From Bacteroidales bacterium (lineage in GTDB: Bacteria; Bacteroidota; Bacteroidia; Bacteroidales; UBA12077), in NCBI GenBank assembly GCA_003446015.1, contig DMBU01000054.1, forward strand, positions 1,121 to 65,120: a stretch of DNA of 64,000 bases, given 5' to 3'. A model generated the notes under the pieces. The model was not told where the DNA came from. It did not search any database and saw nothing but the letters and a program-made list of their open reading frames with translations. The stretch's first letter is position 1. The number at the start of each line of letters is the position of its first letter. Below are positions 11,547-45,064 of this stretch, in pieces. Both the position numbers and the translations under genes were made by a program.

Positions 11547-11570
11547 AAGTGACCCAGGGAGGACTCGAAC
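11547..11570. repeat. island attachment-site repeat (left), a duplicated tRNA-Arg 3' fragment
   Basis: AAGTGACCCAGGGAGGACTCGAAC is identical to 45041-45064. Confidence 0.85.
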
Positions 11571-11706
11571 TTACTTTACACCCAAATACAATCAAGAACT
11601 TCAAAATACTAATAAACAAGGCAAATATACAAAATATTTGTTTGTAGTTGTACACGGATGTTTAAAAAAGTACACTTTATTGGGTGCAAGTGTGGGTGCA
11701 AATTAC

Positions 11707-11714
11707 TATCTTTG
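11707..11714 (+). promoter_or_regulatory. candidate -7 promoter element (TAtcTTTG) for the integrase
   Basis: TAnnTTTG match 20 nt upstream of the ATG at 11734. Confidence 0.3.
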
Positions 11715-11733
11715 ATTATCAAAAATTTATTAG

Positions 11734-12987
11734 ATGGCAACACTCACATATTTTATAAGAACCACAAAGAAACCAACAGAAAAGGTAAGTATTAGAGTTA
11801 GATTAAGGCATAATGAAACTTACTTTTATGCAAAAACTTCATATGCGGTTGCTCCCCAAAACTGGGATAAGAAGAAGCAACGAATAAAGCAGGGGAAAGA
11901 GCATTCAACGAGAGATACAATTAATACTAAACTGACTTCATTGGAAACCTATATAATGGATCAGTGGAACCTACGCATTGATAAAAATCTAATAGACAGC
12001 GAATGGTTGCAGGATTCTATCAATTTATTTTTTAAGAAAACCGTAAAAGAGGAAAAGGAAATATCATTACAAAGATTTATTAATAAATACTTCGATAATA
12101 TTGATTTGTATGTAAGTGATAAAACAGGAAAAAAGTTAAATCCTAGCACTATTCGAAAACTGAAAGCGAGTCAAGAAGTTCTAAAGGACTTTATTGAAAA
12201 GAGATTCGAAAGTATTTTGCTTACAGAAGTTAATTATGCTTTTTATGAAAGTTTTGTTCAATATCTAACTGATGAAAAAAAGTATGCAGTTAATACGGTG
12301 GGTAAACACATTGGAAGTTTAAAGGCAGTATTAAGCTTTGCAAAACGAAAGGGGTATAATATAGATACTGAGCGATTTAAAAGACTGAGTGAAGAAAGCG
12401 ATAATATTTATTTAAATGAAGAAGAGTTACAAAAAATATATAGTCTCGATTTATCTGAAAACAAACGTTTAGAAAAGGTGCGTGATCTTTTTATTGTTGG
12501 TGCCTGGACCGGACTTAGATTTAGTGATCTAACCATGGTAAATAAGGATAGTATACAAAATGATATGATTGTTGTTGAGCAAAGTAAAACATCGCAAAAA
12601 GTATTTGTTCCATTACACTGGATGACCAAAGCAATATTTGAAAAATATGATTACGAAATTCCCGTTCAGATAACCAACCAAAAGTTTAATGAGTTTATAA
12701 AAGAGGTCTGTGATAAAGCAAAAATTAATGATGTTTTTACAAAAGGAATAACAATTGCAGGAAAACGAAAAATTGAACAATTTAAAAAGCATCAAAAGGT
12801 TTCATCGCATACTGCAAGACGTTCATTTGCAACAAATTTATATAACTCAGATTTTCCAACTATCTCAATAATGGCAATAACAGGTCATAAAAGTGAAAGA
12901 GCTTTCTTATCATATATAAAAGTTACACCAGAAGAGCATGCAAAAAAACTTCAACGACATTGGGGGAATATTAATAAAACACTCTAA
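11734..12987 (+). CDS. tyrosine-type site-specific recombinase / integrase
   Basis: 417-aa ORF. The C-terminal catalytic region has WTGLRFSDL (Arg), HTARRSFAT (H-x-x-R) and ITGHKSERAFLSYIK (His and the Tyr nucleophile). The N-terminal arm-binding-like region is typical of Bacteroidota integrases. Confidence 0.85.
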   Translation: MATLTYFIRTTKKPTEKVSIRVRLRHNETYFYAKTSYAVAPQNWDKKKQRIKQGKEHSTRDTINTKLTSLETYIMDQWNLRIDKNLIDSEWLQDSINLFFKKTVKEEKEISLQRFINKYFDNIDLYVSDKTGKKLNPSTIRKLKASQEVLKDFIEKRFESILLTEVNYAFYESFVQYLTDEKKYAVNTVGKHIGSLKAVLSFAKRKGYNIDTERFKRLSEESDNIYLNEEELQKIYSLDLSENKRLEKVRDLFIVGAWTGLRFSDLTMVNKDSIQNDMIVVEQSKTSQKVFVPLHWMTKAIFEKYDYEIPVQITNQKFNEFIKEVCDKAKINDVFTKGITIAGKRKIEQFKKHQKVSSHTARRSFATNLYNSDFPTISIMAITGHKSERAFLSYIKVTPEEHAKKLQRHWGNINKTL

Positions 12988-13015
12988 TTTTATATAAGGC
13001 ACAATTATTAAAGAA

Positions 13016-13765
13016 ATGATTTCACACATTAAAAGCACTGTATTCTCAATTTTAATTAAAAAAAATAGCTCTAACATTAAACATCTTGGAACTGGATTTT
13101 TAATTGGCAAAGAAGGATTATTTTTTACTGTTGGTCATACTTTTAGAAAGATTAAAAAAGAAATTGAAAATAATGGCCTTAATAATATATTTGTTGCATT
13201 TCCTAAAAAACAGGCCGAATTAATTGAAATTAATAGATTGCAGTATAAATCAATTGAAATATACAAGCAAAAGGGGCCAACTTATATAGATATAGCCGTA
13301 GGTTCGATTCCTATTAAGAATGATGATTATTTGGTTTTCAAGAGAAAAAGGCCGTCTAATAAAGAAAAATTAACTGCTTATGGATATAAAAACATGAAGG
13401 ACAATGGTCTGCATGAATTATCTGAAAATACTGCAAACTTAGAAAAAGTAGAATTAAAACCAGAAAAGGTTAATAAAACACATGACATAGCTCTAATTTC
13501 AGATGTGAGAAGAGATTATGAATTATCAAGGGAAAAGGTAAACAGAAGTAGGTTTTTTAATAATTGTATTACTCTTGACAAAAGATTGTTTAGCGGGGGT
13601 AGTGGCTGTCCTATTGTTGATTCAGATGGATATGTTAGGGGTGTATTAATAGGTAGTTCTCAAATTGTCAAATCTTCAGATATGATTTTATCAAAGTATT
13701 GTACTAAATATATTAGATATCACACTAGTATCATGTTTGATATGTATCAAGACATTAATTCTTAA
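13016..13765 (+). CDS. trypsin-like (S1/chymotrypsin-fold) serine protease, no signal peptide
   Basis: 249-aa ORF with the triad in canonical order: TVGHTF (His), YIDIAV (Asp), GGSGCPIV (GxSGxP Ser). Confidence 0.6.
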   Translation: MISHIKSTVFSILIKKNSSNIKHLGTGFLIGKEGLFFTVGHTFRKIKKEIENNGLNNIFVAFPKKQAELIEINRLQYKSIEIYKQKGPTYIDIAVGSIPIKNDDYLVFKRKRPSNKEKLTAYGYKNMKDNGLHELSENTANLEKVELKPEKVNKTHDIALISDVRRDYELSREKVNRSRFFNNCITLDKRLFSGGSGCPIVDSDGYVRGVLIGSSQIVKSSDMILSKYCTKYIRYHTSIMFDMYQDINS

Positions 13766-13940
13766 TGTATAATGTTTAATTGAGGACCACTTTATTCTCA
13801 AAAAAATAGTTAAAAACATTGATCTAAATTGCAAAATAAAGTCTAACTATTTAGTAAGACATTTTATTAAAACTTTATAGAATTGTTTTATTTTTTTAGT
13901 AATTTCATCAAACATTTGATATTAAGAGATAGTATTTGTA

Positions 13941-15050
13941 ATGACCAAACTAAAAAGTGAGCTTATTCAAGAGTTAAGGGATTTAAATAAAAATCCTGAT
14001 ACTGAAATAGTTCCTTTTATAGGTGCGGGATCATCAAAACTTTTAGGATTACCGGATTGGAAAGAACTCATAGAGCAATACCATAAATATGTTGGTTGTA
14101 CTATTAGTTTAGAATCTATAAAGAAGGATCTTAAAGAGGATCTTTCTAAAGTTGCAGATTTAATATTTGAGAATTCTGGTAAAGATTTTGATTTATATTA
14201 CGAATTTATGGGAGGGATTACACCCAAAAATACTGGATATACCGCATTACATGCTGTATTAGTTAAGAATTTTCAAAAAATTATTACAACCAATTATGAT
14301 CAAGCTTTTGAGAATGCCTTAAGTGATGATAATATAAATGACTATAAATTATTAGTTTATCCAAATAATTTAATGTCAATTGATTTTCAAGGAAGGGTTA
14401 TTGCATATATACATGGACATATTAAAAGTGGAATTTATGTTTTTCGAAATGAAGAATATGAGCAAGCCTATCTACATGATACTAAAATAAAAAGTTTTCT
14501 AACAGAAATTATTTCAAAGAAAGTTTTAGTGTTTATTGGTTTTAGTTTTAGTGATAAGATGTTTAGAAATACAGTAAAACAAATTATCGCAGAAACAAAC
14601 GCAGTAAGAGAAAAAGAAGAGCAAGTTTTTGGGAAAAAAAGCAAGACAAATTTTGAACAAAAATTATATGTATTATTTCCAAGCGAAAATTTGAAAACAA
14701 AAGTTTTTAAACATGATTTAAGTAAATTAGGGATCAATTATGATGAAATAGAGGATCATATAAGCTTAAATGGGGAAGATGATTCTTTAGAAATGAAAGT
14801 TCTAGAATTAGAAGAAAGTGCCAATTTACTGAAAATTGAATTAGGAGAAAACTATAATAAGCTAAATGAATTGTACTTAAGAACTGAAAAAAATAGAGAT
14901 ATGTTAAAATATTTTAGCAATCTTAAAATTGAAGTAGTTGAATATGATGAAAACAATACCATTGAAATAGAAGAAATAATTAGACTAATAACCAAAGAAG
15001 AAATCAAACATTCAGATGATTTATCAGAAGCTCGCAATATAAAGAATTAA
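13941..15050 (+). CDS. SIR2-like (SIR2_2-type) domain protein with a coiled-coil tail
   Basis: 369-aa ORF with VPFIGAGSSKLLGLPDWKELI, ITTNYDQAFE, YIHGHI and VFIGFSFSD. These blocks characterise the defence-associated SIR2_2 family. Confidence 0.7.
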   Translation: MTKLKSELIQELRDLNKNPDTEIVPFIGAGSSKLLGLPDWKELIEQYHKYVGCTISLESIKKDLKEDLSKVADLIFENSGKDFDLYYEFMGGITPKNTGYTALHAVLVKNFQKIITTNYDQAFENALSDDNINDYKLLVYPNNLMSIDFQGRVIAYIHGHIKSGIYVFRNEEYEQAYLHDTKIKSFLTEIISKKVLVFIGFSFSDKMFRNTVKQIIAETNAVREKEEQVFGKKSKTNFEQKLYVLFPSENLKTKVFKHDLSKLGINYDEIEDHISLNGEDDSLEMKVLELEESANLLKIELGENYNKLNELYLRTEKNRDMLKYFSNLKIEVVEYDENNTIEIEEIIRLITKEEIKHSDDLSEARNIKN

Positions 15051-15054
15051 GGTT

Positions 15055-17823
15055 ATGTTAATAGAAGAGTTAAGAATAATACAAGATTATATTAATAATC
15101 CTAAGGACGTTAAGCTACCTGAAGATAGATTCTTTTTAGATAATGATATAAAAGAAGAGTTTTTTTGGTTAAAAGCGAGCATTAAAAATCAGAAATTAAT
15201 CATAAGTGATTTCATTAAAGATCATCCATGTTATATATCAAACAAATTAACAAGGATTCTAAGAACGGGTGAATACACGAAAATTGAGTATTATTTATTA
15301 GTGTTCCTGATAAATTTAACTGATAATTTGGTTAAGATGGAGAGTTCACTTTCTATTGTTAAGGATATAATTGATGAATACATTGTTAACGGAAATACTT
15401 CTAGCTGTAAACTTAATTCTCAAGTGCAATTTTTTATATCTAAAATGATAATTAGGTTACCAATAAAAGATTTATCTGACACATATATTGATTTTATAGC
15501 TGAAAAGGCACTTCATAATGATTCTGCACTATCATATCAAATAACAGATGTCTTTTTCCCAAAACTTCTTGAAAGCGGAAATAAAGATTTGGTTAAAAAG
15601 GTATTAATCAAATGGATATTTTCTTATGACATTAAGAATTCATCATTTGAGTTTTCACAATCTCCAATTTTATTACCTAGGTTTTATAGTTACAGTTTAG
15701 AAAATATTATATCTGATAGTAAAAAAATAAGAAGCTTAATAGAAATTATAGGAGCAAATGAATTATTTGAATTATCACTGGGTTTAATAAAAGAAGTTAT
15801 TAATAAAGCTCCAATCAAGTTTCATTCTATAAATATCCCAACAATTGAAAAAAGCGAACAAACCGTTAATGAAAATGATTTTTCATATTTATTAGTAAGT
15901 TTTATTAGAGAACAAATAAATTTAAGCAAATTAAGTAAGAAGTTAGTTACAAGTCTTTTAATATCAGAAGTTTCAATTATTAAGAGATTCGGGTATTATA
16001 TGATTGGATTGTATTATGTTGATTATAAGAATCTTTTTTGGAATTTGAAGGTGTACAATCCTTTAAATGAAGTAGAATCTAAATATGAAATATTCAGTCT
16101 ATTGAAAGAGAATTCTGAAGCAATAAAAAAAGAGGAATTAAAAATCTTATTTAATTGGATTGATAATATAGAGATTAAAGACTATGATGGTGACGCAGAT
16201 GAGATCAAAAAATTGAAAGTAATAAGAGGAAAGGAGTATATAGCAGCACTTGAAAAGATTAATGAAGAATTTATAAAGAGTGTAAAAGATAAAAAGAAAG
16301 AATTAGATAAGATTTATCCATATGAAAGAGAACATCCAGGCTATAATTCCTATTTTACTACTAGGGTAGGGTATGATTACCCAGACAGTGATGAAGAATT
16401 TAAACTTTATAGTAATAACCCACAGAATTTGGTAAAAAAGATTGAGGAAGATGATGATAAATGGGATTGGCTGGAAAAAGAGGGACAACAAGATAGATTA
16501 AGAGAACTTTTTAAAGAAAATCCTAATTATATCAAGGATACCAATAGTTTAGCAAAATTAGATTTTAATTATTTGTCTAATATCATTTATGGATTGGATT
16601 TGGCATTGAAGGAAGGAAAGATTATTGACTGGAATAAAATTATCAAGCTTATTAATACTGTAATAAATTCAGGGAAGTTTAATGAATCTACTCATGATAG
16701 AAATCAATTTGTTGGTTATGTAGGGTGGTTAATTAGGACTGCAACTGAAAGTGACGAAAAGCCATTACTTAAAGAACATTTGAGTTCATTAAAAGATATT
16801 TGTTTGAAGTTGTTAAAATTAAATACTCATTCAAAAAGGTTAAATAATGATCCTTTTTTTGATGTTTTGAATAGTTCAGAAGGTAAAGTTTTTGATGCAA
16901 CATTAAATGTTTTATTACAAAATGCTAGGTTATATAAGAAAAATGATGGTGATAAATGGATTAAGGAAATAAAGGATTATTACACATACGTCTTAAATAA
17001 TAATAAAATTTCTGAAGCATTTCTTTGGAGCGTTGCTGGACACTTACCTCAGTTTGGTTTTCTTCATATGGATTGGTTAATTGAGAATATAGATAAATTA
17101 TTTCCAAAGGGTAATTTGAAATATTGGAAATTATCCATGAGGTTTTATCACCGAATGTCTTCTACTGTTTATAAATCAATATTTGATTTACTTAATTCAA
17201 ATGGGCATTATGATTTAGCTTTAAAGATTTTTATTAACAAGGAAGAAGGAACAAGGGACATAATTTCACATATTATTGTAAGTTATATTGCAGGTTGGAA
17301 AGAACAAGAAATAGATAATTCCAATGGTTTGTTGAATAGAATTATTAAAAAACAAGAATGGACTCAAATTGAATCTGCAATAAATTATTTTATCACTAAT
17401 AAAAATATTGAAACAAATAGATTGATTGAATTTTGGCGTTTAATGGTAGGTAATGTTGAAAAGGAAAAAGATAAAATAGGAAGAGAATTACTAAGACTTT
17501 CACATAGAATCTACTCTATAGATGATGAAATATATGAACTAATGTCTCAAACATTAGATTTATTAGATGATAAAAGAGAATTGCATGAACTATTAAGGAA
17601 TCTTCTGAAATCTATTAAAGGGGATCCGTTGAAAAGAGCAAAGTTAATTATGAAAGCGACATCGAAAGACCTAGATCAGGGGTATTATATCGATGATGAT
17701 ATAAAAAAATTATTAGAAGAATTAGAAAACGAAGATGTTTTATTTAGATTGAACTTTATAAATGATATGGTTTCAAAAAGATTATTTGGTCTTTTTGATA
17801 TTTATTATTCAGAAGAACTATAA
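15055..17823 (+). CDS. large helical-repeat protein, no enzymatic motif seen; candidate sensor partner of the SIR2 protein
   Basis: 922-aa ORF starting 4 nt after the SIR2 stop. Leu/Ile/Lys-rich and helix-like throughout, with no P-loop or nuclease motif visible. Confidence 0.5.
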   Translation: MLIEELRIIQDYINNPKDVKLPEDRFFLDNDIKEEFFWLKASIKNQKLIISDFIKDHPCYISNKLTRILRTGEYTKIEYYLLVFLINLTDNLVKMESSLSIVKDIIDEYIVNGNTSSCKLNSQVQFFISKMIIRLPIKDLSDTYIDFIAEKALHNDSALSYQITDVFFPKLLESGNKDLVKKVLIKWIFSYDIKNSSFEFSQSPILLPRFYSYSLENIISDSKKIRSLIEIIGANELFELSLGLIKEVINKAPIKFHSINIPTIEKSEQTVNENDFSYLLVSFIREQINLSKLSKKLVTSLLISEVSIIKRFGYYMIGLYYVDYKNLFWNLKVYNPLNEVESKYEIFSLLKENSEAIKKEELKILFNWIDNIEIKDYDGDADEIKKLKVIRGKEYIAALEKINEEFIKSVKDKKKELDKIYPYEREHPGYNSYFTTRVGYDYPDSDEEFKLYSNNPQNLVKKIEEDDDKWDWLEKEGQQDRLRELFKENPNYIKDTNSLAKLDFNYLSNIIYGLDLALKEGKIIDWNKIIKLINTVINSGKFNESTHDRNQFVGYVGWLIRTATESDEKPLLKEHLSSLKDICLKLLKLNTHSKRLNNDPFFDVLNSSEGKVFDATLNVLLQNARLYKKNDGDKWIKEIKDYYTYVLNNNKISEAFLWSVAGHLPQFGFLHMDWLIENIDKLFPKGNLKYWKLSMRFYHRMSSTVYKSIFDLLNSNGHYDLALKIFINKEEGTRDIISHIIVSYIAGWKEQEIDNSNGLLNRIIKKQEWTQIESAINYFITNKNIETNRLIEFWRLMVGNVEKEKDKIGRELLRLSHRIYSIDDEIYELMSQTLDLLDDKRELHELLRNLLKSIKGDPLKRAKLIMKATSKDLDQGYYIDDDIKKLLEELENEDVLFRLNFINDMVSKRLFGLFDIYYSEEL

Positions 17824-17846
17824 AATTAAATTAGATATAGATTTAA

Positions 17847-18173
17847 ATGTGGTCAAAAGAAGAACTCCAAGTTTATATAAGCTACTGTAAACTGAATAAC
17901 TTAAAATATGAATGTGTCTGGATAAATATGAATGATGATGAAAGATTAAATTTACTTGGAAAACTACATCAAAAAATGCTTCAAATTGATAAATCTGTTA
18001 AAGTGTATCTTGATTTTGAATATGTTGATTCTTTAAGGTATTCTTTAATCGATTTTGTTAAAGACGAAATGCCAAATAAGTTACTTACCTGGATTCCGGA
18101 TAACTTTAGCACAAAACAAGAAATGGTAAAATATGTAGATAATTACGTTAAAAAAGAGCTCTACTGGAATTAA
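17847..18173 (+). CDS. small hypothetical protein, third gene of the SIR2 operon
   Basis: 108-aa ORF 23 nt downstream of the 922-aa gene on the same strand. Confidence 0.45.
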   Translation: MWSKEELQVYISYCKLNNLKYECVWINMNDDERLNLLGKLHQKMLQIDKSVKVYLDFEYVDSLRYSLIDFVKDEMPNKLLTWIPDNFSTKQEMVKYVDNYVKKELYWN

Positions 18174-18182
18174 ATATAAAAA

Positions 18183-18325
18183 GGTCATTTGCAACAAACT
18201 TATATAACTCAGATTTTTAACAATTTCAATAATGGCAATAACAGGTCATAAAAGTGAGAGAGCTTTCTTATCATATATTTAAGTCACACCAGAAGAGCAT
18301 GCTAAAAAACCTCAAAGGCACTAGG
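18183..18325 (+). pseudogene. decayed 3' fragment of a second tyrosine integrase gene
   Basis: About 143 nt align with integrase positions 12822-12964, roughly 85-90% identical by eye. The fragment has a 1-nt deletion and in-frame stops (GATTTTTAA, TATATTTAA). Confidence 0.8.
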
Positions 18326-18439
18326 AAAAATTTGCTAAATAAAGTCTGACTATTTGGTTAGTATTTGGTAATTTTATTATAATCATATTCCAATTAGATG
18401 GAATAATTATCCAACTATTGAATTGTTAGGCAACATTGT

Positions 18440-19474: not shown

Positions 19475-19513
19475 GTTAAAAGACTCATTACATAACTGGA
19501 AACCATAAAAAAA

Positions 19514-24397: not shown

Positions 24398-24643
24398 ATG
24401 CTTTAAAGAATCTTATTTTAGTTTAGCATTATATAAAACAACTGATTAAATTTGTATAGTTTATAAGATTGTTAGCAGATTTGTGCAAAAAATATTTAGC
24501 GTTAACAGAACGTCTCAACATAGAAAACTGGTAATTTTCAAAACGTTATTTTCATTATCTTCTTTACATTGCAAAATTAAGTAAAATGCAATAATTAATA
24601 ATCAAGGTATTCCATTTTCAATCCGTTAAGCCACTTTTTTTGT

Positions 24644-24726
24644 CAGATTCAAGGTTCAGTCAAGACTGTTCCGTGTTGCGCCTGCGGCAGAACACTTGCC
24701 TTGGTCTTGACGGGTTCTTGAATCTG
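24644..24726 (+). repeat. nested-stem structured element, family B copy 1
   Basis: CAGATTCAAG (24644-53) pairs with CTTGAATCTG (24717-26). GTCAAGAC (24659-66) pairs with GTCTTGAC (24704-11). An inner GC-rich hairpin GTGTTGC..GCAGAACAC sits between them. The architecture is shared with 42063-42144. Confidence 0.5.
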
Positions 24727-24740
24727 GCGTACCTTTGCTT

Positions 24741-26582: not shown

Positions 26583-26583
26583 A

Positions 26584-36900: not shown

Positions 36901-39900
36901 GTCGTTGGCTGATGGCCGTTATCAGGCTTATATTGACGACGGATATTTAGCAATACGAGGTGATTTTACTCCATTGGAGAATTTAACAGAGTCGCTAACT
37001 ATTCCTCTTGAAGGAAGAAGTAACCCAGTTAAATATAATTATTTGGTAAACTCCACCAATGAAGTAAGTTTATGGAAAGTGAATCAAGATAATAGCTGTG
37101 AGGTAAGCAATTATTATGAATCAAATAAACTTTTTAAATCGGAAACTATTGATGAAAATGAGAATTCTGTTTTTGAGTATGTTGATCTAACAGGAAAAAC
37201 AGTGCTTAAAAAGACTAATGATGGAGTTGTGGATTTGCTAACCTATTATGTATATGATATTTATGATCAGTTAAGATACGTATTCCCTCCATTAGCCGTT
37301 GAGAATTTAGGCTCAGAAACTGTTTTTGACACATCTCATGTTTTAGTTAAAAACCTATGCTATTACTATGAATATGATCATAGAAATCGTATGACCATAA
37401 AAAAACTGCCCGGAGCAGATCCTATCTATATGATTTACGATAATCGAGACCGATTAGTACTAACTCAGGATGGAAATTTACGTGATGAAAACAATTGGAT
37501 TTTTACCAAGTACGATGAATACAATCGCCCTGTACTGACAGGAATTTATTTCAATAATGTAAACACTGGACAAGCTAACATGCAAGCTTTTGTTAATTCT
37601 GAAATGTCTGTTTTTTATGAAGAAATACCTGATGGTTCTGATTATGAAGGAGACGATTTTGGATATACAAATTTATCTTTCCCAACATCGGATTTTGAGA
37701 TTTTAACTGTTGCTTATTACGATAATTATAATTTTGATATTAACGATGTAATCAGAAATTATTCAGAAACATATGATGATATTTATGATTATCCTGTTTC
37801 TAATATCAATTATGAAACAAAAGGACTCGTTACCGGAACATTAACAAAAGTTTTAGGTACAACCGATCATTACTTAATGTCCGTAAACTTTTACGATGAA
37901 AAAAATCGTATTTTAAGAACATATAACGAAAATTATCTTGGAGGGGATGATTTAATACTGAATAGTTACAATTTTATCGGTAATATCATAAAGACTAAAC
38001 AGGTTCATATTAAAGATGTAACTACATCCCCTATTGTAATAAATCAGCAATTTGACTATGATCATGCTTCTCGATTAGAAAAAGTACTCCATCAGATTGA
38101 AGGAAATGGAGATGCTCTTGTGATGGCGGAAATGGAATACAACGAGATTGGACAATTAATAAAAAAGAAACTTCATGAATCGGCACCAGATAATTTCTTA
38201 CAGGAAATAGATTTCACATATAATTCACGTGGTTGGCTGACAAAGATAAACGATACTGAAAATACAACAGATAATTTATTCGCAATGCAGCTAATTTATA
38301 ACGATTTTGTTGATGGTATAACTAGCACAAATGAAGCACAATATAATGGTAATATCTCAGCAATATTATGGAGAACTATACAAGATAAAAAAAATATAAG
38401 TATCGAAGATGAAACAGTAGATTCAGAAATAATCTCAAATTATATGATAACAGTTTCACCTGGTACTACTTTATTATCCGGAACGCATTTAGTTATAGAA
38501 CCTGGTGCTGTGGTTGAAGGAAATGCAGGTGTTACAGAAAAACAAGCATATGCTTTTAATTATGATGATGTTAATCGTCTTAAGAAAGGGGATTATAAAA
38601 TTGATATTGAAGGATGGACAAATCCAGACACCTATGACCTTGAAGCTGTTAATTATGATGCAAATGGGAATATCTCATTATTGAAACGTTTTGGAGATGA
38701 TGGATCATATTTAGACAATTTAGAATATGATTATTTGCATGAAGGTAATTTTACAAATCAGTTAAGAAATGTGACTGATATTGGTGATGTAGATAATGGT
38801 TTCTATGATCAAACAAACGCTGGAGTGGATGAAGAATATTTATACGATAATAATGGTAATCTTATAGTTGATGACAATAAAAGCTTTGATGTATATTATA
38901 ATTATTTGAACTTGCCCGAAGAAATCGATTTTGGAAATGGGGACAAAATTAAATATATTTACGATGCGAGTGGAGTTAAATTGGCTAAAGAAACTTATCA
39001 AAATAATGTTCTAAGCATGGACGTAGTGTATACCGGGAATATAATATATGAAGATCCAACTGGTTCCGATTTTACATTGTTAACTTCAGAAGGCAAAGTC
39101 TCAAAAACAAATTCTACATATAATTACGAATATTATCTAAAAGACCATTTGGGAAATACTAGGGTTATGTTCCATGATGATGGTAGTGGTAATGTTTTAG
39201 TTGATCAAGTAAACAGTTATTATCCTTTTGGAATGTTGTTCGAAAAACAGAATTTGGATAAAAATAAATACTTATATAATGGTAAAGAGTTACAAGAGGA
39301 TGTGTTTAATGGTGTAGCATTGGATTTGTATGATTACGGCATGAGAATGTATGACCCAAGCTTAGGTAGGTTTTTTACACAAGACAGGTTCTCTGAAAAA
39401 TATATAGACTTCTCTCCATATCAGTATGCTGCTAATAATCCAGCTCTTTTTATTGATGTTAATGGAGATAGTTTGTGGATAAATCATAAAGGAAATGATA
39501 TACTTTATGAAAATGGAAGTTTATATAATAAAGATGGTTCTGCGTATACAGGAAAAGGAGTAAAAACTAAAAAAGATGGAACTGTAAAATATACAGGGTT
39601 TTTAGGTAAGACTATGAGTGCTTTAGGAGCTATTAGTGGTGGAGCTGACGGTGCTTCTATGATTTCAGATTTACAATCATCAGATAATAATTTTGTAATT
39701 CAAAATGCAAGTAAAAGTGAATTTAAAGCAAATAATGCTTCAAAGGCATACGCAGGTCAAATACAATCTGATCCGAATTTATCTTCTGCATTAGCTTCTG
39801 GAGCTGACTTTTCTGGTGGCTCTGGTGGAACAATTTTTTGGAATTCATCAGGAACAATAGTACCTACATTAGCAGGAGGGGCTTCTAATGGAGCTATGGA

Positions 39901-40177
39901 TTTAGCTCATGAAATGTTCCATGGTTTAGATGCTAATAAGGGTTTATTAGATAATAGAATGCATCAAGGGATTAAGAGAAGTGAATGGAGTGCTGTTTAT
40001 CAAGAAAACAACTTACGCGGTCAACTGGGGCTTTCATTACGTACACATTATGTAAAAAATGTTGATCCGTCTGGTGTTTATATTGGTGGAAGTGGTGCTC
40101 GAATGATTACACCCGCTAATACACCTTATTTACCAATGTATCCTATGTCACCAAAACCAATACGAATAACTCCATAA
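33911..40177 (+). CDS. RHS/YD-repeat polymorphic toxin with N-terminal CARDB-like repeats and a C-terminal HExxH domain
   Basis: 2088-aa ORF with a signal peptide. It has several ~110-aa repeats ending ...ESNE.NN (CARDB-like) and a DIQYFNGLGRPIQS...YDELGRQ block. YD repeats follow, then the RHS core end YYPFGM...YLYNGKELQ...YDYGMRMYDPSLGRFFTQD...NPALFIDVNGD. A 235-aa tail follows, with LAHEMFHGL at 39908-39922. Confidence 0.85.
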   Translation: MRRINWLHTITLLLIIFISNKTYSQDLPDFTVDITTLPFEIIEGSTPTITIKTENIGTSYASAGVVNFYLSENSSYDVSDTYIGNQYCYITLAAGESYTYDVTHVSIPSGTSLGLRYLIAYIDGGLSVNESNENNNTDSRLFEVVENTLLPELSLSIYSASPSTINVGENTTLVFNLSNTGDADAGSNTTEFYLSSNTTCENYIDEYLGSYTYTSINAGGNSTTGTTVTIPTNVDAGTWYIVAKVDANNEVTESNEENNNIAYKQVEITADRDLLAEIISLNPSSILPGESTSLNFILSNLGSDNASSSTMKFYISSNSTFESASDIYLSSYNCYGLTGGGTSTANINLTIPGTLYTGTWYILCIADAISEITETNENNNIASHEISILPKPDLFIVSAKANPSYIFDGESTSLTFTTIGSQNNAGPSRTKFYLSSNTTYDSGSDILLGYYDLSSIYAGDVIISTKNLTIPSGTGTGITYILCTTDANNEVDESSETNNVYSVQVNINQVPAPTISAAPDCSTGSITIHSGLSGQQSYVLSTGTSCNTVINSSYVDASSYTFTNLPTGTYTAFVGKNGIYSSCSEPIELSNYEKPTVTIEKNDNDITISSDLTILQTFYLSDDNCNTYIDSHTDDDQAYTFLNLPDGTYSAYILNVYKGCISECSNNVTVVNKPDLYITDQSVDSKYIKAGESCSLTFTLGNASSLGTAGASTTKFYLSLDTQFDSDNDILLAYHDFGSLLPQETYTITKTITPTSSDDGVYYILSIADADNEIEEGQETNNSANTEIYIIQESPDPIISTPNSVKTEIPLVPAASDNTYELSQTDIQYFNGLGRPIQSINIKQSPSGKDIVQDIEYDELGRQYKLYLPYVIEGAGEYKYDPNLNNLTNFYFDQPNVAKTIYPYSETVFDNSPLNRVQEQIAVGNVGDIIQYQDFSVNFNYDVFVFNPEGGGGSVTISIVNNVLNISFSSGFAESPLKIGKIVELTTSPKLPDMILGSLADGRYQAYIDDGYLAIRGDFTPLENLTESLTIPLEGRSNPVKYNYLVNSTNEVSLWKVNQDNSCEVSNYYESNKLFKSETIDENENSVFEYVDLTGKTVLKKTNDGVVDLLTYYVYDIYDQLRYVFPPLAVENLGSETVFDTSHVLVKNLCYYYEYDHRNRMTIKKLPGADPIYMIYDNRDRLVLTQDGNLRDENNWIFTKYDEYNRPVLTGIYFNNVNTGQANMQAFVNSEMSVFYEEIPDGSDYEGDDFGYTNLSFPTSDFEILTVAYYDNYNFDINDVIRNYSETYDDIYDYPVSNINYETKGLVTGTLTKVLGTTDHYLMSVNFYDEKNRILRTYNENYLGGDDLILNSYNFIGNIIKTKQVHIKDVTTSPIVINQQFDYDHASRLEKVLHQIEGNGDALVMAEMEYNEIGQLIKKKLHESAPDNFLQEIDFTYNSRGWLTKINDTENTTDNLFAMQLIYNDFVDGITSTNEAQYNGNISAILWRTIQDKKNISIEDETVDSEIISNYMITVSPGTTLLSGTHLVIEPGAVVEGNAGVTEKQAYAFNYDDVNRLKKGDYKIDIEGWTNPDTYDLEAVNYDANGNISLLKRFGDDGSYLDNLEYDYLHEGNFTNQLRNVTDIGDVDNGFYDQTNAGVDEEYLYDNNGNLIVDDNKSFDVYYNYLNLPEEIDFGNGDKIKYIYDASGVKLAKETYQNNVLSMDVVYTGNIIYEDPTGSDFTLLTSEGKVSKTNSTYNYEYYLKDHLGNTRVMFHDDGSGNVLVDQVNSYYPFGMLFEKQNLDKNKYLYNGKELQEDVFNGVALDLYDYGMRMYDPSLGRFFTQDRFSEKYIDFSPYQYAANNPALFIDVNGDSLWINHKGNDILYENGSLYNKDGSAYTGKGVKTKKDGTVKYTGFLGKTMSALGAISGGADGASMISDLQSSDNNFVIQNASKSEFKANNASKAYAGQIQSDPNLSSALASGADFSGGSGGTIFWNSSGTIVPTLAGGASNGAMDLAHEMFHGLDANKGLLDNRMHQGIKRSEWSAVYQENNLRGQLGLSLRTHYVKNVDPSGVYIGGSGARMITPANTPYLPMYPMSPKPIRITP

Positions 40178-40180
40178 ACT

Positions 40181-40681
40181 ATGAAAAGATATTTAATTTA
40201 CTTAGGTATAATTATTTTTACAAGCTGTAATAGTGTTGCTCAAACTTTAGTAAAATATGATACGTATTCTAATAATCAATCTATAAAGGTAAAAATGAAG
40301 ATTCCTTCTGAATTTGATTTAAAAAGATATGAAGTAACAGTTGAAAAAGAGAATCAATATTTTTACATGGATTCTTCTATTATATATATATCAAATTTTA
40401 CTAATAACCCCAATTATTCAAATATTAAACAGCTCGGAGATAGTATTGCTAATTATAGATTTCAAGATGAAGAATTAACTAAGAGTATAAATGAACAAAT
40501 GAATAAAGAAGTTGTAAAACCGTTGCCCGATAGTCTGGTTCTTTTTGGTATTGATGAAAATAATCTATTTTGGAAAGATATAAAAATTGGGAAAATTAGT
40601 ATAGGTTACTTAAAAGTCTCAGAAGATAAAAAAGAATTGTTTGACAAGTCATTAAAAACAGTAAAAATTAAGCAACCTTAA
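40181..40681 (+). CDS. putative cognate immunity lipoprotein
   Basis: 166-aa ORF starting 3 nt after the toxin stop. Lipobox-like IIIFTSC. The position is canonical for RHS immunity genes. Confidence 0.55.
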   Translation: MKRYLIYLGIIIFTSCNSVAQTLVKYDTYSNNQSIKVKMKIPSEFDLKRYEVTVEKENQYFYMDSSIIYISNFTNNPNYSNIKQLGDSIANYRFQDEELTKSINEQMNKEVVKPLPDSLVLFGIDENNLFWKDIKIGKISIGYLKVSEDKKELFDKSLKTVKIKQP

Positions 40682-40753: not shown

Positions 40754-41020
40754 TTTGTATGCTTGACTTGCTTTAAAATCTCGAATATAAGCGGAAATAA
40801 CTTTTAGAATTGTTTTCTTTTCTTCTTCTGGTAATTTATAAAGTTCTTTTAATCTGTTTTTATATTTGATTAAAGGATTGAAAAGAACACTAAAGAAATA
40901 AGGTCTTTTGTTTTTAATAGGAAGAAGGAGAGATCTTGAGTAAAAATGAAAGTCCTTAGAGGTGAGAAACAGGCTCTTCTCGATTCTTCTTCGAGATGTG
41001 CCTGTTGTGTTTTGAGCTAA
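40751..41020 (-). pseudogene. start-less open frame ending in a regulator-like C-terminal tail; probably a truncated gene remnant
   Basis: The reverse frame is open for ~89 codons with no ATG/GTG/TTG. It ends ...NPLIKYKNRLKELYKLPEEEKKTILKVISAYIRDFKASQAYK*, which resembles tails of small Bacteroidota HTH regulators. The upstream half runs through family A copy 3. Confidence 0.3.
40871..40996 (+). repeat. hairpin repeat element, family A copy 3
   Basis: A TAAAGGATTGAAAA lead-in, then stem AAGGTCTTTTGTTTTTA (40900-16) with TAAAAATGAAAGTCCTT (40941-57). The loop contains AGGAGAG. A second hairpin is TCTCGA/TCGAGA (40978-96). Confidence 0.6.
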
Positions 41021-41159
41021 TTAATAATTTAAAGAATCCTACTTTCTTTTCACATCTTAAGATGGATAATTTTCTTATATACTGCAACATAAGATATCGT
41101 ATTAAGGTTAGTAAGAAATCTTATGTTGCATAGTCTTTTAAAACAAAGAGGATAGGTCA

Positions 41160-41672
41160 TTACCCTAAACTATTAAATTGATTTTGATAGTGTTTCACTA
41201 ATTTCTTATCAATTTTATAATTGGTTATACCAGGTTGCATTTCACTAATAAATTTTTCAAATAATAATTTTGCTTGTGTATTATTATTCGTTGGAATATC
41301 TTTTTTAATTTCAATATTACCTTTATCTAATTTATCTAATCTATCAAGAATTAATTGTAAATCATTTTTTATTGGTGCGCTTTTCCGTAAATATTCAACA
41401 AACGTATTTGTTACTTCATCTACTTGGTTAAGCATCGGAAGTAATTTAGTTTTCTCATGAGTTCGAATAAATGAAATAACTGTATCTTTCATTTTCTTTA
41501 CTTCTCCTGAAATTGATTGAATTTTATCTAAGGGATCTAAACCCGTTTCAGTAAAATAATTTAATGCTGATTCTATATAATCTTTTTCTGTTTTAAGATC
41601 ACTTACAGCTAATAATTTGCTTAAAATTTCTTTGTAATTTTCGCCTATGCGAATAGATTTATATTTACTCAT
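41160..41672 (-). CDS. hypothetical protein, possibly a ribbon-helix-helix relaxosome-accessory-like protein
   Basis: 170-aa ORF. The N-terminal KSIRIGENYKEILSKLL looks like a strand-helix RHH start and the rest is coiled-coil-like. Sits downstream of a palindrome-rich region. Confidence 0.4.
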   Translation of the reverse strand: MSKYKSIRIGENYKEILSKLLAVSDLKTEKDYIESALNYFTETGLDPLDKIQSISGEVKKMKDTVISFIRTHEKTKLLPMLNQVDEVTNTFVEYLRKSAPIKNDLQLILDRLDKLDKGNIEIKKDIPTNNNTQAKLLFEKFISEMQPGITNYKIDKKLVKHYQNQFNSLG

Positions 41673-41834
41673 TTTTACTAAATTTTAGTGATTGTTACAT
41701 ATTATGTTACAGTAATATATTTATATACCAGAATGTTAAGAGTGCACAGTTACATGTTTATGTAACAATTGGGTTTTTTAAGTAAACGATAGTTTACACA
41801 TTTATAAGCTGTTAAGCTATAAATCAAGCTTTAC

Positions 41835-41855
41835 GGATCGGACTCTGTCCGATCC
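41835..41855. promoter_or_regulatory. perfect 9-bp-stem palindrome in an oriT-like intergenic region
   Basis: GGATCGGAC-TCT-GTCCGATCC. A nearby CCCCC-TAA-GGGGG palindrome lies at ~41953-41965, and TTACGGA motifs recur at ~41830, 41869 and 42054. Confidence 0.3.
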
Positions 41856-41965
41856 CTGCTTGCTTATCCTTACGGAAAACTTTTTCTTCGATAAACCCTA
41901 GCAAAAAAAGAACGTTTTATTTGGTCAAACTTCGTTTGTATTATCCCCCTAACCCCCTAAGGGGG

Positions 41966-41998
41966 AAATTGGATTTTCGGAGCATTCAGGACAAAGAA
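41966..41998. repeat. right arm of the ~33-bp imperfect inverted repeat (partner at 26584-26616)
   Basis: GAGCATTCAGGACAAAGAA (41980-41998) is the exact reverse complement of 26584-26602. Confidence 0.7.
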
Positions 41999-42062
41999 AT
42001 CACAAACAGAATATTCTGAGTCCTTCACTCCTGATAAGCCACCATCCCCGAATTTACGGAGT

Positions 42063-42144
42063 GCTGTCAAGACTTTAGGCAAAAAAATACTACCCGAATG
42101 GGTGGAGATTTTTTTGTCTAAACCGTAGGCTTGGTCTTTACAGC
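42063..42144 (+). repeat. nested-stem structured element, family B copy 2
   Basis: GCTGTCAAGAC pairs with GTCTTTACAGC. Inside, a long hairpin TTTAGGCAAAAAAAT...ATTTTTTTGTCTAAA closes on ACCC-GAAT-GGGT. It shares the GTCAAGAC...CTTGGTCTTKAC frame with 24644-24726. Confidence 0.5.
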
Positions 42145-42199
42145 TAATGGAGTAAATTGGGATATTTGCTTTCAGGATGAATGAAATTAATTTATAAAT

Positions 42200-42766
42200 C
42201 TATGTATCTGTTTTATTGATTTTTTTAATTAACTGAGAATAATTCGGCGAATTTTTTAAACATCTCAATATCAAGGATGCTTTGTCATTAATATTTAAAT
42301 TATCCTTTTCCTTTAAATCATTTTGCCTGAAAATGTATTCTGTTCTTTCTTGGGCATAATCCTTAAAGAAAGAATAAACAATTGTTCCGTCAATACTTTG
42401 ATAAAGTGTTCCAAGAGATCCTTTTTTAATCCTTACAAAAATTAAATTAATTTCTGACAGCTTTAAGAAATTGAAATCCGAAAATAGATAAAAAGCAGTT
42501 TCAGAAATTTGATTTGGATTAAATTTTCTTACAAGATTTAAAAAATCATTAAGATTATAAAGCCAACTTTCAAGATAAGCTAAGACAAAATCTTCACTAT
42601 ATATTTTCTTTATGCTCAAAAGCGAAGGGGAAATTTCATTTAGAAAAGCTTCTTTAACTGTTTTAATTTCTCGATATTCCTTTTGGCATTTAGAAACAGA
42701 AAAATGCTTTATAAATTCATCTTTTGATAATTTGCTGACAGCGAAATTAGTAGCTTGTTTATCCAT
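42200..42766 (-). CDS. hypothetical protein (island backbone)
   Basis: 188-aa ORF overlapping the upstream gene's stop by 8 nt. No recognisable motif. Confidence 0.5.
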   Translation of the reverse strand: MDKQATNFAVSKLSKDEFIKHFSVSKCQKEYREIKTVKEAFLNEISPSLLSIKKIYSEDFVLAYLESWLYNLNDFLNLVRKFNPNQISETAFYLFSDFNFLKLSEINLIFVRIKKGSLGTLYQSIDGTIVYSFFKDYAQERTEYIFRQNDLKEKDNLNINDKASLILRCLKNSPNYSQLIKKINKTDT

Positions 42767-43757
42767 TGATCATTCTATTTAAAACATTTTTTTTACCTTC
42801 ATCAATTTCTAAATCAATAATAAGCTTTGATCTATTTCGTTTGTTCTCGTGTTGTTGTAATTTACTTTCAAAGTTTTCAGATATCCATATTCCGTCTTTA
42901 TAATCTCTTTCCGGTGTTCCAATAAATTTTGCAACGCTGTGTAAAACTTGGGATGTAACTTGCTTATATTTTATGTAGTAAGTGAAGTTTTTGTTAAAAG
43001 TTTCTAACTGATTATTATAATTTAGATGATCGACAAAGAGTTTTATTCTTGTAAACAGTTGAGAATTGTTTAGTTCTTTGGTGCCAAAAAAGCGCTGAAT
43101 ATCATCTATAACATTTTGAGACAATTCAGCGGAATTCTGATTTGTTTTAACCGTATATTGGATCTCAAAATTTATTTGAGATAGGTCTTGACTAAGCAAA
43201 AGTTCAAATTTTTCAATAAATACTGTTTTTAGATTCTTTAGCATTAATTTTTGATCTTCAGTCTTTAATTTTTGAAAATTTTCAAAATCATTTTTTTCTA
43301 AAAAAATTTCTAAAGTGTTGTTAAGTTTATGGTTTAAATGTTTATATGTTTTATTATATATATCATTGCTCTGCTCTTGTTCTGATATGGTATTGATTTC
43401 GCAATGATTTAGTAGTGATTTTGTTTTATTGACAAATCGTTTATCAATCTCAATTACATCGTATGGGATGAATTGATTTGATGCATAACTATGAATTTTT
43501 ATGGCTTTCCATTTTTCAAGATCTTCAAGAACTTTCTTATATGTTCTTTGCGTTCCAATACCTGTAATTTTTAAGAGTTTTTCTCTAGAAATTTCAATCT
43601 TGGTTGCCCAATTACATTCATTTGATATTTCACCAAAATATATAAATGTAGAAATGTGACTAGCTTTAACTTCTGGGTTCTCTGAAGAAAATGAAAGAAT
43701 GCTTTTGGTTACTTTATAACCTGTGATTTTTTCATTATTTTTGTACATATATTTCAA
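42759..43757 (-). CDS. hypothetical protein, possibly a winged-helix replication/initiation-type protein
   Basis: 332-aa ORF. The N-terminal region ISREKLLKITGIGTQRTYKKVLEDLEKWKAIKI looks like a wHTH. It follows the Xis-like gene, as rep/primase genes do in small integrative elements. Confidence 0.4.
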   Translation of the reverse strand: MKYMYKNNEKITGYKVTKSILSFSSENPEVKASHISTFIYFGEISNECNWATKIEISREKLLKITGIGTQRTYKKVLEDLEKWKAIKIHSYASNQFIPYDVIEIDKRFVNKTKSLLNHCEINTISEQEQSNDIYNKTYKHLNHKLNNTLEIFLEKNDFENFQKLKTEDQKLMLKNLKTVFIEKFELLLSQDLSQINFEIQYTVKTNQNSAELSQNVIDDIQRFFGTKELNNSQLFTRIKLFVDHLNYNNQLETFNKNFTYYIKYKQVTSQVLHSVAKFIGTPERDYKDGIWISENFESKLQQHENKRNRSKLIIDLEIDEGKKNVLNRMING

Positions 43758-43811
43758 TTTTTAAATTGAATATAAAAGCATTAAGTGAAGCCCTTGCTGC
43801 AACAAGGGCTT

Positions 43812-44024
43812 TTATATTAGCTGTTTTTGTCTTTCCATGTAATCTTGCAGTTCCCTAGCGCTTATCCGTGACCCTGCTTGTAATTTATATTTGTGGATTT
43901 CGCCAGATCGGAAAAGATTGTAGATTGTGGTGCGACTGCAGCTAAGCATTATTCGGGCTTCTTGAATGGTTAAAAACTCTTCAAGTGTGGAATGAGTTTT
44001 TCTAGTTTTTACATCTGTGTTCAT
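43812..44024 (-). CDS. excisionase/AlpA-like helix-turn-helix DNA-binding protein
   Basis: 70-aa ORF. LTIQEARIMLSCSRTTIYNLFRSGEIHKYKL fits the MerR/Xis-type HTH_17 pattern. Confidence 0.65.
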   Translation of the reverse strand: MNTDVKTRKTHSTLEEFLTIQEARIMLSCSRTTIYNLFRSGEIHKYKLQAGSRISARELQDYMERQKQLI

Positions 44025-44154
44025 AGCAATTTATTTTAGTTTATTAATAATTGTTTCTGACCACAAGTGTAAAGATGATTAACATTCATATCAATACCCG
44101 TGTATGATATATTAAGAAAATGGTATGATAAATTATAAAAAAGGTATGATGTTT

Positions 44155-44955
44155 TTAGCTAAAATCAATTTGTGAAAAATGTTTCTTAAATTTATTTTGG
44201 TTTAATTTATCAAAAACGTGCCTAGCGCCATCTTCAAAATCTATTTCTTTGAAAAACCTATAGATTTTTACACCGCTTCTATACACTGCTTTTGGTTTGA
44301 AGTTTTCGGTACCCGTAAAAAATGGGCTTTTGTAAATATATTTAGTGTTAAGTTTTTTTTGAATAAATGGCAGCAATAAATTATTCCAGCATTCTTTATT
44401 AGCTAGTTCAGTATCATTTTTAGGTAAAAATATTTTCATTTCTATTGCAAGAGACCCTAGTCTTGAAGCATCTTGATGATTTCTTTCATTTGGCTTACAC
44501 CAGGTAATTCCTTTAGCAATTATTTGACTAGCTAATTGTCGTTTAATATTAGGATTTAAATAGCTTTTTAATGTACCACTTTGTAATTCATCAAAGTATT
44601 GAATGATTGTTGATGTATCAGTATTTTTCTCCACGGCAATTAATAAAATTTCAGGATAAGACTCATAAACATTCTGCCAGTACTCATATCCAATTTTATT
44701 CCTAAATAAAGTTGCTATTACAAAACCACTTTTTTGAATAAGAAATTTTTTTATGATTTGATTATTTTTTTCTTTTGATCGGTTAAAGAAATGGATTAAA
44801 GAAAGGTAAATTAATTTTTTCTGTTTAAAGAAATATCTAAATTGGATTTTTATGAATTTTCTTTCTGTTATTGTTATTCCTATAATTAATATTGCAGAAA
44901 GTGTCAAAACAATTATTGCAGAGATATTAATTTTAAGAAGATTTGTATAATTCAT
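44155..44955 (-). CDS. hypothetical membrane-anchored protein (island backbone)
   Basis: The ATG at 44955 (MNYTNLLKINISAIIVLTLSAILIIGI) gives one N-terminal TM helix. The track start at 45024 would run through the putative arm site. Confidence 0.5.
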   Translation of the reverse strand: MNYTNLLKINISAIIVLTLSAILIIGITITERKFIKIQFRYFFKQKKLIYLSLIHFFNRSKEKNNQIIKKFLIQKSGFVIATLFRNKIGYEYWQNVYESYPEILLIAVEKNTDTSTIIQYFDELQSGTLKSYLNPNIKRQLASQIIAKGITWCKPNERNHQDASRLGSLAIEMKIFLPKNDTELANKECWNNLLLPFIQKKLNTKYIYKSPFFTGTENFKPKAVYRSGVKIYRFFKEIDFEDGARHVFDKLNQNKFKKHFSQIDFS

Positions 44956-45040
44956 ATTATTAAAAATTAAAATTATTGGGTGCAAAAACGGGGGCAAATA
45001 AGAGCCCCCTGAATGCAACATCATAATAATGAATTACTTA

Positions 45041-45064
45041 AAGTGACCCAGGGAGGACTCGAAC
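45041..45064. repeat. island attachment-site repeat (right), overlapping the tRNA-Arg 3' end
   Basis: Identical to 11547-11570. Positions 45044-45064 are the last 21 nt of the tRNA. Confidence 0.85.

Follow-up and report, generated by a model that had tools for sequence, protein, structure and literature searches.

A probable 33.5 kb integrative island at the 3' end of a tRNA-Arg(TCG) gene in an uncultured sediment Bacteroidales bacterium

Among the mobile elements of Bacteroidota, NBU1 and NBU2 are inserted in the 3' end of tRNA genes (tRNA-Leu and tRNA-Ser). Together with Tn4555, Tn4399 and cLV25, they belong to the Bacteroidota elements that possess a tyrosine integrase and are mobilised by conjugative transposons. 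Integration of NBU1 is site-specific, with secondary sites, and its excision needs extra regions of the element, while NBU1, NBU2, Tn4399 and Tn4555 encode MobP relaxases and use MPF_B helpers (PMC5704250). In Riemerella anatipestifer, a 10K genomic island is located in a tRNA-Arg gene and bordered by a perfect direct repeat, and its IntN1-like integrase integrates and excises in experiments (PMC6764341). The present analysis concerns a 64,000-nt stretch of the Bacteroidales contig DMBU01000054.1 (the window), in which positions 11571-45040 are read, with good confidence and from sequence comparison, as a site-specific integrative genomic island of the Bacteroidota integrative mobilisable lineage, composite in its make-up and probably excisable.

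By analogy, the mechanism and layout of this island are those of Bacteroidota integrative mobilisable elements (IMEs) such as NBU1/NBU2 and the Riemerella tRNA-Arg island. It resembles the NBU1/NBU2-type elements in the domain architecture of the integrase, in an excisionase-type gene and in a BfmA/BtgA gene, the integrases being compared at the level of domains. However, it differs from them by the lack of a relaxase, by its tRNA-Arg(TCG) target, by a size about three times larger, by its defence and toxin cargo instead of resistance genes, and by its host, an uncultured sediment Bacteroidales. The Riemerella island, compared here by its published description, is likewise a Bacteroidota island in a tRNA-Arg gene with a flanking perfect repeat; it measures 10 kb with a 53-bp repeat, versus 33.5 kb and 24 nt here, and its excision needs no other element genes. 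Mobile genomic islands of this type are well known, and the present one is a clear though unexceptional case; it adds to the recorded Bacteroidota islands that are mobilisable but have no relaxase, and leaves the understanding of such elements unchanged. With it, the accessory DNA of the window, from an uncultured host, is cleanly delimited.

Integration at the tRNA-Arg(TCG) gene

The features on which the delimitation depends are the following:

11547-11570, attL core: exact repeat, made up of 22 nt copied from the tRNA-Arg 3' end and 2 further nt
11576-11701, left arm: TTGGGTGCAA-type motifs at 11576-11585 (minus strand), 11680-11689 and 11692-11701 (both plus strand); candidate integrase arm/core binding sites
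11734-12987, plus strand: tyrosine integrase, 417 aa (Pfam Phage_int_SAM_5 and Phage_integrase; Arm-DNA-bind_5 below cut-off)
43812-44024, minus strand: excisionase-type HTH_17 protein, 70 aa (Pfam HTH_17, 1.8e-11; TIGR01764 excise above cut-off; PHROG excisionase families)
44155-45024, minus strand: 289-aa open reading frame (ORF) with no assigned function, beside attR, its 5' end overlapping the right-arm motif TTGGGTGCAA at 44976-44985
45041-45064, attR core: exact repeat, within the intact tRNA gene
45043-45116, minus strand: tRNA-Arg(TCG), intact (ARAGORN; Rfam)
Predicted repaired attB junction: ...GATACATATCAACCCTTTTCAAGTGACCCAGGGAGGACTCGAACCCCCAACCCTCAGAGCC...
Predicted circular attP junction: ...CATAATAATGAATTACTTAAAGTGACCCAGGGAGGACTCGAACTTACTTTACACCCAAATAC...

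The 24-nt sequence AAGTGACCCAGGGAGGACTCGAAC occurs in two exact plus-strand copies in the 64 kb window, at 11547-11570 and 45041-45064, and no third copy is found there at up to 3 mismatches, none being expected from shuffled sequences. Likewise, the 14-nt core GGGAGGACTCGAAC, searched in the window at up to 2 mismatches, is restricted to the two repeat sites. The tRNA-Arg(TCG) gene, one of two tRNAs that were the only matches of the Rfam scan of the window, is placed on the minus strand at 45043-45116 by ARAGORN and at 45044-45116 by Rfam (65.3 bits); therefore, the right repeat corresponds to the final 21-22 nt of the tRNA and 2 nt downstream. An initial annotation of the window had reported an exact 24-nt repeat whose second copy ends a tRNA-Arg, and both its coordinates and its description are correct, as is its statement that the flanks are housekeeping: those on the left are MotA_ExbB/ExbD genes, and leuS follows on the right.

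Between the left repeat and the start of the integrase ORF at 11734 there are 163 nt, and the presence of a tyrosine integrase just inside this repeat, as had been proposed, is borne out by its Pfam families and by the residues R262, K285, H359, R362, H385 and Y394, invariant in an alignment of 25 homologues and forming the R-K-H-R-H-Y set. At the opposite end, the protein first noticed as an Xis-like helix-turn-helix (HTH) is recognised as such by HTH_17, TIGR01764 and PHROG. The motif TTGGGTGCAA has two exact copies, at 11680 and 44976, and near-copies at 11576 and 11692; four of its nine near-matches in the window are within 135 nt of the island ends. Motifs of this type, located in both arms, are candidate integrase binding sites.

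Related genomes were compared by means of LeuS-anchored loci, 80 in number with one genome per species, the closest of them belonging to uncultured Bacteroidales with LeuS 77-86% identical. An empty site is present in five related species (L005, L008, L009, L010 and L011), having the gene order tRNA-Ser, exbB/exbD block, orthologue of the 131-aa gene, about 35 nt, tRNA-Arg(TCG) and leuS. As seen in the alignment, the left flank of the window and the terminator hairpin past the 131-aa gene are colinear with the five empty sites up to the core; past ...CTCGAAC, the window enters element sequence, whereas the five loci run on into the tRNA. Moreover, the 18 island proteins have no homologue in any of the 80 loci. 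Alignment to relatives had been suggested earlier as the way of finding the 131-aa gene followed directly by tRNA-Arg, which is what the five species display, with leuS next, and the contrary outcome, with the same 33 kb in the same place and no empty alleles, is at variance with these five species and with the island proteins having no homologues in the compared loci.

The nearest integrase in databases (92% amino acid identity) is encoded on contig L081, downstream of an orthologue of the 131-aa gene and of the same tRNA fragment, at an identical junction. In both sequences, ...CTCGAAC is followed by TT[A/G]CTTTACACCC, the form in L081 being ...CTCGAAC followed by TTGCTTTACACCC... Meanwhile, the cargo of L081, a protein kinase and genes with no known function, is unrelated to that of the window. 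The identity between the two is 95.7% for the non-coding arm and 86.9% for the integrase gene, and only 74.8% for the adjacent host gene and 63% for the host intergenic region; therefore, the element is younger than the divergence of the hosts, and the comparison directly attests that it moved horizontally into this particular site. A single integrase lineage is seen repeatedly to bring different defence cargo to the same tRNA-Arg site in diverged hosts. Beside integrases with 62% identity or less, the core is not found.

The insertion of a 33.5 kb island in the tRNA-Arg 3' end by an integrase, the central claim of the initial annotation, is supported by the unique repeat, the five empty sites, the integrase itself and L081. 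As the comparison with other genomes shows, the tyrosine integrase recombined the attP of an element in circular form with the chromosomal tRNA-Arg(TCG) gene at its 3' end, duplicating 22-24 nt and keeping the tRNA intact. The island would probably still be excised as one unit through the action of integrase and excisionase on attL and attR.

Other genes adjoin the tRNA in L001, L004 and L007, without an integrase homologue, and the neighbourhood therefore varies in additional ways. In L007 (5643-9390) and L004 (about 2297-5223), three ORFs (about 430, 321 and 205 aa) occupy the interval from the 131-aa gene, or the place corresponding to it, to tRNA-Arg; as none of them is an integrase homologue, the intergenic site varies also without an identifiable mobile element.

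Right-end backbone and mobilisation

From the tRNA inwards, the minus strand of the right end carries the 289-aa ORF, the HTH_17/excisionase gene, a 332-aa protein, a DUF6633 protein, a repeat-rich spacer of 527 nt and a BfmA/BtgA protein. The last four are located as follows:

42759-43757, minus strand: 332-aa backbone protein, possibly winged-helix replication-organiser-like; 46% identical to the gene beside the HTH in the sister element L166
42200-42766, minus strand: DUF6633 protein, 188 aa (Pfam 1.5e-6; phrog_35728)
41673-42199: intergenic region, 527 nt, rich in inverted repeats, upstream of the mobilisation gene; candidate origin of transfer (oriT) by position only
41160-41672, minus strand: BfmA/BtgA-family mobilisation accessory protein, 170 aa (NCBIfam NF041200, 7.9e-14)

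The BfmA/BtgA assignment depends on the N-terminal domain, with 51.6 bits for a cut-off of 24, and plasmid homologues of the 170-aa protein are likewise annotated as BfmA/BtgA. No relaxase family match was obtained for any island ORF of at least 70 aa, no relaxase gene comes after the BfmA/BtgA gene, and no remnant of an L166-like MobB-type (DUF5712) relaxase was detected in the window by tblastn at E<=1. Regarding the canonical definition of an IME, the island therefore has the relaxosome accessory or mobilisation protein (BfmA/BtgA) and lacks a relaxase of its own. As for integrative and conjugative elements (ICEs), library scans of the island ORFs gave no family match to type IV secretion system (T4SS)/mating-pair or coupling proteins, and as for prophages and satellites, PHROGs matched the excisionase and families of unknown function only, the integrase having no relative in IMG/VR. 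The initial annotation had seen no relaxase, T4SS or capsid genes, which agrees with the absence of such family matches but has to be refined by the presence of the BfmA/BtgA-family mobilisation gene. Between the two types that it had offered, mobilisable or satellite, the mobilisable lineage is retained, given this gene and the MobB relaxase of L166, and the satellite is not.

L166 (JGI Ga0376442_00002, 9726-20304) is a sister element of about 10.5 kb, adjoined by transposase fragments. Its order comprises a small gene, a 321-aa homologue of the 332-aa protein, a DnaC-like ATPase, a BfmA-like gene, a MobB relaxase, an IteA/IteS-like pair, a 404-aa gene and an integrase, the MobB-family relaxase (DUF5712; NF041495, 197.7 bits) being located directly after the BfmA gene. 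Both elements have the same backbone order, the three Pfam domains of their tyrosine integrases are the same, and L166 likewise bears anti-phage cargo of the IteA/IteS-like type. However, a relaxase is present there and none in the window, the integrases are only 25% identical, and L166 is a single small element in a locus where no tRNA was seen, whereas the island of the window is composite. The similarity of the 527-nt region to the equivalent region of L166 is not above that of shuffled controls.

The 332-aa protein has one close homologue, in L166, and 484 remote homologues, and among 40 of the latter a few match Lin1244_N, DUF1376, HTH_36 or DnaD_N. The protein itself has no direct family match, and neither sequence and profile searches against PDB, which returned nothing meaningful, nor a plasmid search, in which nothing was found, identified a relative. 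Structure prediction from a two-sequence alignment resulted in a mean pLDDT (predicted local distance difference test) of 43.7, a model too poor for use. Thus, the description of genes at this end as "rep-like" is weakly supported, by the few remote homologues with Lin1244_N, DUF1376 or DnaD_N, and not by any direct family match of the 332-aa protein.

By homology, the island belongs to the Bacteroidota lineage of integrative mobilisable elements, its backbone consisting of the excisionase, the 332-aa protein, DUF6633 and the BfmA/BtgA protein, followed by the cargo and then by the integrase. For transfer, it would depend on a co-resident element to provide both the relaxase and the conjugative pore, or the ability to transfer may have been lost. 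The island fits best as a mobilisable island that has no relaxase and possibly only an oriT, a category described in PMC11389934, or as a decaying one.

A Chondrinema plasmid (L177, NZ_CP111071.1, 10.6 kb) possesses a BfmA/BtgA gene and no annotated relaxase, and is classified by MOB-suite as non-mobilisable; therefore, BfmA-only replicons exist.

Proposed composite origin and alternative readings

Inside the island, the 3' end of a second integrase gene was found, next to a small ORF:

17847-18173, plus strand: 108-aa ORF with no assigned function, adjoining the decayed integrase fragment, with the DSR1 block between it and the integrase
18178-18340, plus strand: second integrase 3' end, a pseudogene covering codons ~361-417 that contains in-frame stops and has lost 1 nt

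The segment 18178-18330 shares 86% identity with 12816-12968, its counterpart in the intact gene, and is found 5361 nt downstream of it, while the homology of this region to the DNA downstream of the L081 integrase runs to 18413. L081 is colinear with the window to 12968, jumps to 18178-18413 and, after its own cargo, rejoins at 24479-24542. The additional 5.36 kb by which the window differs from L081 is made up of a new integrase tail, a protease, a split DSR1-like system (both described below) and the 108-aa gene, and this block has the lowest GC content of the island (26.3%); the C-terminal tail of the intact integrase is a different one from about 12968 onwards. Homologues of the 108-aa ORF (53% amino acid identity; a 108-121-aa gene) are located directly past the integrase in L085 (3211-3576) and L176 (1483-1818). 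A comparable fragment occurs in L082 (12821-13315), as well as in L083 and L084, where a divergent integrase 3' end (residues ~254-419) is found 1.6-1.7 kb past an intact integrase; in L082, the integrase is 56% identical to that of the window, and two small genes lie between it and the fragment. Among about 85 integrase loci checked, further fragments were limited to the L082-L084 group, so that no general rule emerges, and the integrase 3' duplication is the one unexplained detail of the island.

The island appears to be composite, deriving from at least two related tRNA-Arg-specific elements, and the decayed second integrase 3' end supports the suggestion, already made in the initial annotation, of an accretion of several elements. 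Integrative elements, of the ICESt1 type and others, are known to accumulate in tandem at a single att site and then to decay, which leads to composite islands and to cis-mobilisable elements (CIMEs) (PMC5704250), and the decayed fragment fits such a history. However, classical accretions keep an internal att site (attI) and none is present in the window, so an extra deletion must be assumed. In the most economical reading, two related tRNA-Arg-specific elements would have been joined in tandem at one site; the att site between them, part of a backbone and the 5' two-thirds of one integrase gene would then have been lost in a deletion.

It is unlikely, by comparison, that the island is a single element into which the 5.36 kb block with protease, DSR1 and 108-aa gene entered by recombination anchored on the integrase 3' end, supplying a new 3' end and displacing the old one. 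Such an event would agree with the direct copies of about 150 nt that flank the block (12816-12968 and 18178-18330; 86%), the downstream one being decayed, with the changed tail of the intact integrase from about 12968 on, with the low GC content of the block, and with the difference in the cargo right after the integrase between L081 and the window, a difference located between the conserved anchors 18178-18413 and 24479-24542; L082 likewise displays integrase, two genes and integrase 3' fragment in succession. Nevertheless, the block encodes no recombinase, the boundary of the fragment varies (codon ~361 in the window versus ~254 in L082), which is against a fixed site, about 80 more distant integrase loci have no such fragments, and the position of the 108-aa gene directly after the integrase in L085 and L176 fits a whole-element origin of the left part. 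Its generalisation, a mechanism of cargo exchange in which defence modules would be swapped in via the integrase 3' end, the incoming DNA restoring the gene as integrating elements restore a tRNA, is doubtful; if true, the integrase 3' end would be a hotspot of cargo exchange, as the tRNA 3' end is for whole elements.

Several observations weigh against an excisable, composite island. All five empty sites belong to other species (LeuS 77-82% identical) and none to the same species; every assembly recovered for the host organism is occupied, and these assemblies contained no same-species empty allele, circular junction, excised circle or repaired attB. The occupied arrangement was seen in the assemblies of sediment metagenome SRR500735, JGI 3300003138 and SRR6488080, and a metagenome scan with an exact 35-nt left-junction pattern, fitting both occupied and empty alleles of the host species, gave 0 matches. 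A third att copy is missing inside the island (AAGTGACCCAGGGAGGACTCGAAC at up to 3 mismatches and GGGAGGACTCGAAC at up to 2), so that the accretion step is carried by the integrase fragment by itself, and no oriT was identified from the comparison of the 527-nt region with L166. The base composition, examined across the borders as previously recommended, does differ (GC 29.4% in the island versus 32% in the flanks), but the contrast is small and the signal weak; by tetranucleotide correlation, most of the island is inside or near the flank range, and composition on its own would not have identified it. A rival reading is a fixed fossil, an island integrated as described that no longer excises or transfers and is now chromosomal accessory DNA. 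This reading is possible but rather unlikely: the absence of a relaxase, the 3.5 kb gene-poor zone with its GIY-YIG fragment, the decayed integrase fragment and the occupied state of all recovered assemblies are in line with it, but the integrase is full length with all catalytic residues, the excisionase is intact, the repeats are identical in 24 of 24 positions and the arm is 95.7% conserved with L081, while the absence of a relaxase need not mean decay, as replicons with BfmA and no annotated relaxase exist (L177). A prophage or phage satellite integrated at the tRNA is very improbable, since no capsid, terminase, portal, tail or lysis family match was found in ORFs of at least 70 aa, the integrase has no IMG/VR relative and a conjugative mobilisation gene is present instead, even though integration at a tRNA 3' end with integrase and excisionase is common to temperate phages and satellites and the excisionase matches PHROG families. 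The cross-species nature of the empty sites would also suit an ancestral 33 kb deleted in the relatives, with a coincidental repeat; this is effectively refuted by breakpoints that match, to the nucleotide, a tRNA 3'-end duplication beside an integrase, by the same precise "deletion" that five independent lineages would need, and by L081 with different cargo at the same junction.

The 131-aa flanking protein has no record in an exact-protein look-up, and a 137-aa version of it was found, on occupied contigs only, in two samples. A 5389-nt contig with a 28-nt end overlap (L170), considered as an excised circle, was rejected as an assembly-graph artefact of ordinary de Bruijn branching, because its ends match the first and last unique 31-mers around a 32-nt exact repeat present in both integrase 3' copies.

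Defence and toxin cargo

The left half of the island carries genes of the defence type:

13016-13765, plus strand: trypsin-like serine peptidase, 249 aa, cargo (Pfam Trypsin_2, 1.4e-6; protease region of PADLOC RT-Protease_XI, 1.6e-9)
13941-15050, plus strand: SIR2 protein, 369 aa, N-terminal half of the split DSR1-like system (Pfam SIR2_2, 1.5e-19)
15055-17823, plus strand: 922-aa protein, equivalent to the DSR1 C-terminal region (PADLOC Dsr1 PDLC04166, 9e-105, profile positions 291-1193 of 1227)
18440-19474, plus strand: 344-aa ORF with no assigned function, upstream of the NACHT gene (sub-threshold DUF4943 match only)
19514-24397, plus strand: Mrr-like nuclease and NACHT STAND NTPase, 1627 aa, defence-type cargo (Pfam NACHT, 4.5e-10; Mrr_cat_2, 1.6e-5)

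The SIR2 domain and the large C-terminal region jointly match the profiles of Dsr1, defence-associated sirtuin 1, over almost their full length, the 369-aa protein matching the SIR2 regions of PADLOC ThsA, LmuA and Dsr1, as well as positions 20-247 of the NCBIfam Dsr1 model. However, the system is divided here into two ORFs and not encoded as a single polypeptide, the cut-off of the full-length NCBIfam Dsr1 equivalog is not reached, and a trypsin-like protease gene lies upstream. As judged from the gene boundary, a clean stop followed by 4 nt and an ATG, from the homologues of the 922-aa protein, all of about 910-926 aa, and from the same pair in Fluviicola (L171, 6787-10781; SIR2 protein of 405 aa and a 926-aa protein, with no upstream protease), it is a genuine two-gene variant and not a frameshift. 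One protein from a Bacteroidales bacterium MAG is 100% identical to the 922-aa protein. The 1627-aa protein belongs to no PADLOC system and has only a faint match to the EruA P-loop in NCBIfam. Its C-terminal region, of about 1100 aa, has no family match. The split DSR1 and the Mrr-NACHT protein are predicted to serve phage defence.

Further to the right, the cargo is of the toxin type:

27967-30138, plus strand: secreted nuclease, 723 aa, with Endonuclease_1 and two LTD domains, ExeM-like (family matches)
30163-33855, plus strand: 1230-aa protein with a hydrophobic N-terminus, between the secreted nuclease and the RHS toxin
33911-40177, plus strand: polymorphic toxin, 2088 aa, with five CARDB domains, DUF6443, an RHS-associated core and a C-terminal Peptidase_M91 (family matches)
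40181-40681, plus strand: 166-aa ORF directly after the toxin, with no family match; immunity candidate by position only

The secreted nuclease and the RHS/M91 toxin are predicted to serve interbacterial or extracellular attack. The 1230-aa protein between them has no match in Pfam, NCBIfam, PHROGs or PADLOC, and PADLOC returned nothing for this block. The defence-like and toxin-like genes that the initial annotation placed inside the island are confirmed as such by Pfam, PADLOC and NCBIfam matches, and the island is of use chiefly as a well-delimited source of such genes. For defence-gene mining, it offers the DSR1 variant in two genes, the Mrr-NACHT protein, which is unclassified, and the 1230-aa protein.

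Between both groups of cargo there is a gene-poor zone, and repeats were found there and towards the right end:

24398-27966: gene-poor, apparently decayed zone of about 3.5 kb, with a GIY-YIG fragment, two hairpin repeats and an alpha-CTD-like ORF
24972-25349, minus strand: GIY-YIG fragment, in the gene-poor zone
26756-27172, plus strand: 138-aa ORF like the C-terminal domain (CTD) of the RNA polymerase alpha subunit, which its C-terminal half matches (Pfam 4.7e-8)
24771-24842, 25547-25618 and 40898-40969: three copies of a hairpin repeat (about 58 nt), from self-comparison of the window

The hairpin repeat has a 17-bp stem (AAGGTCTTTCATTTTTA/TAAAAATGAAAGTCCTT) and a loop containing GGAGAG, with each copy just past a cargo module. 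It is present inside the island only, being absent from the 30 kb of flanks and, copies of the same contig aside, from 2.3 Mb of fetched loci, and its folding z-scores are unremarkable. In addition, the segment 26577-26702, upstream of the alpha-CTD-like ORF, recurs at 41066-41128 and 41966-42005, in direct or inverted orientation and with 79-85% identity, these recurrences being located in non-coding DNA around the BfmA-like gene.

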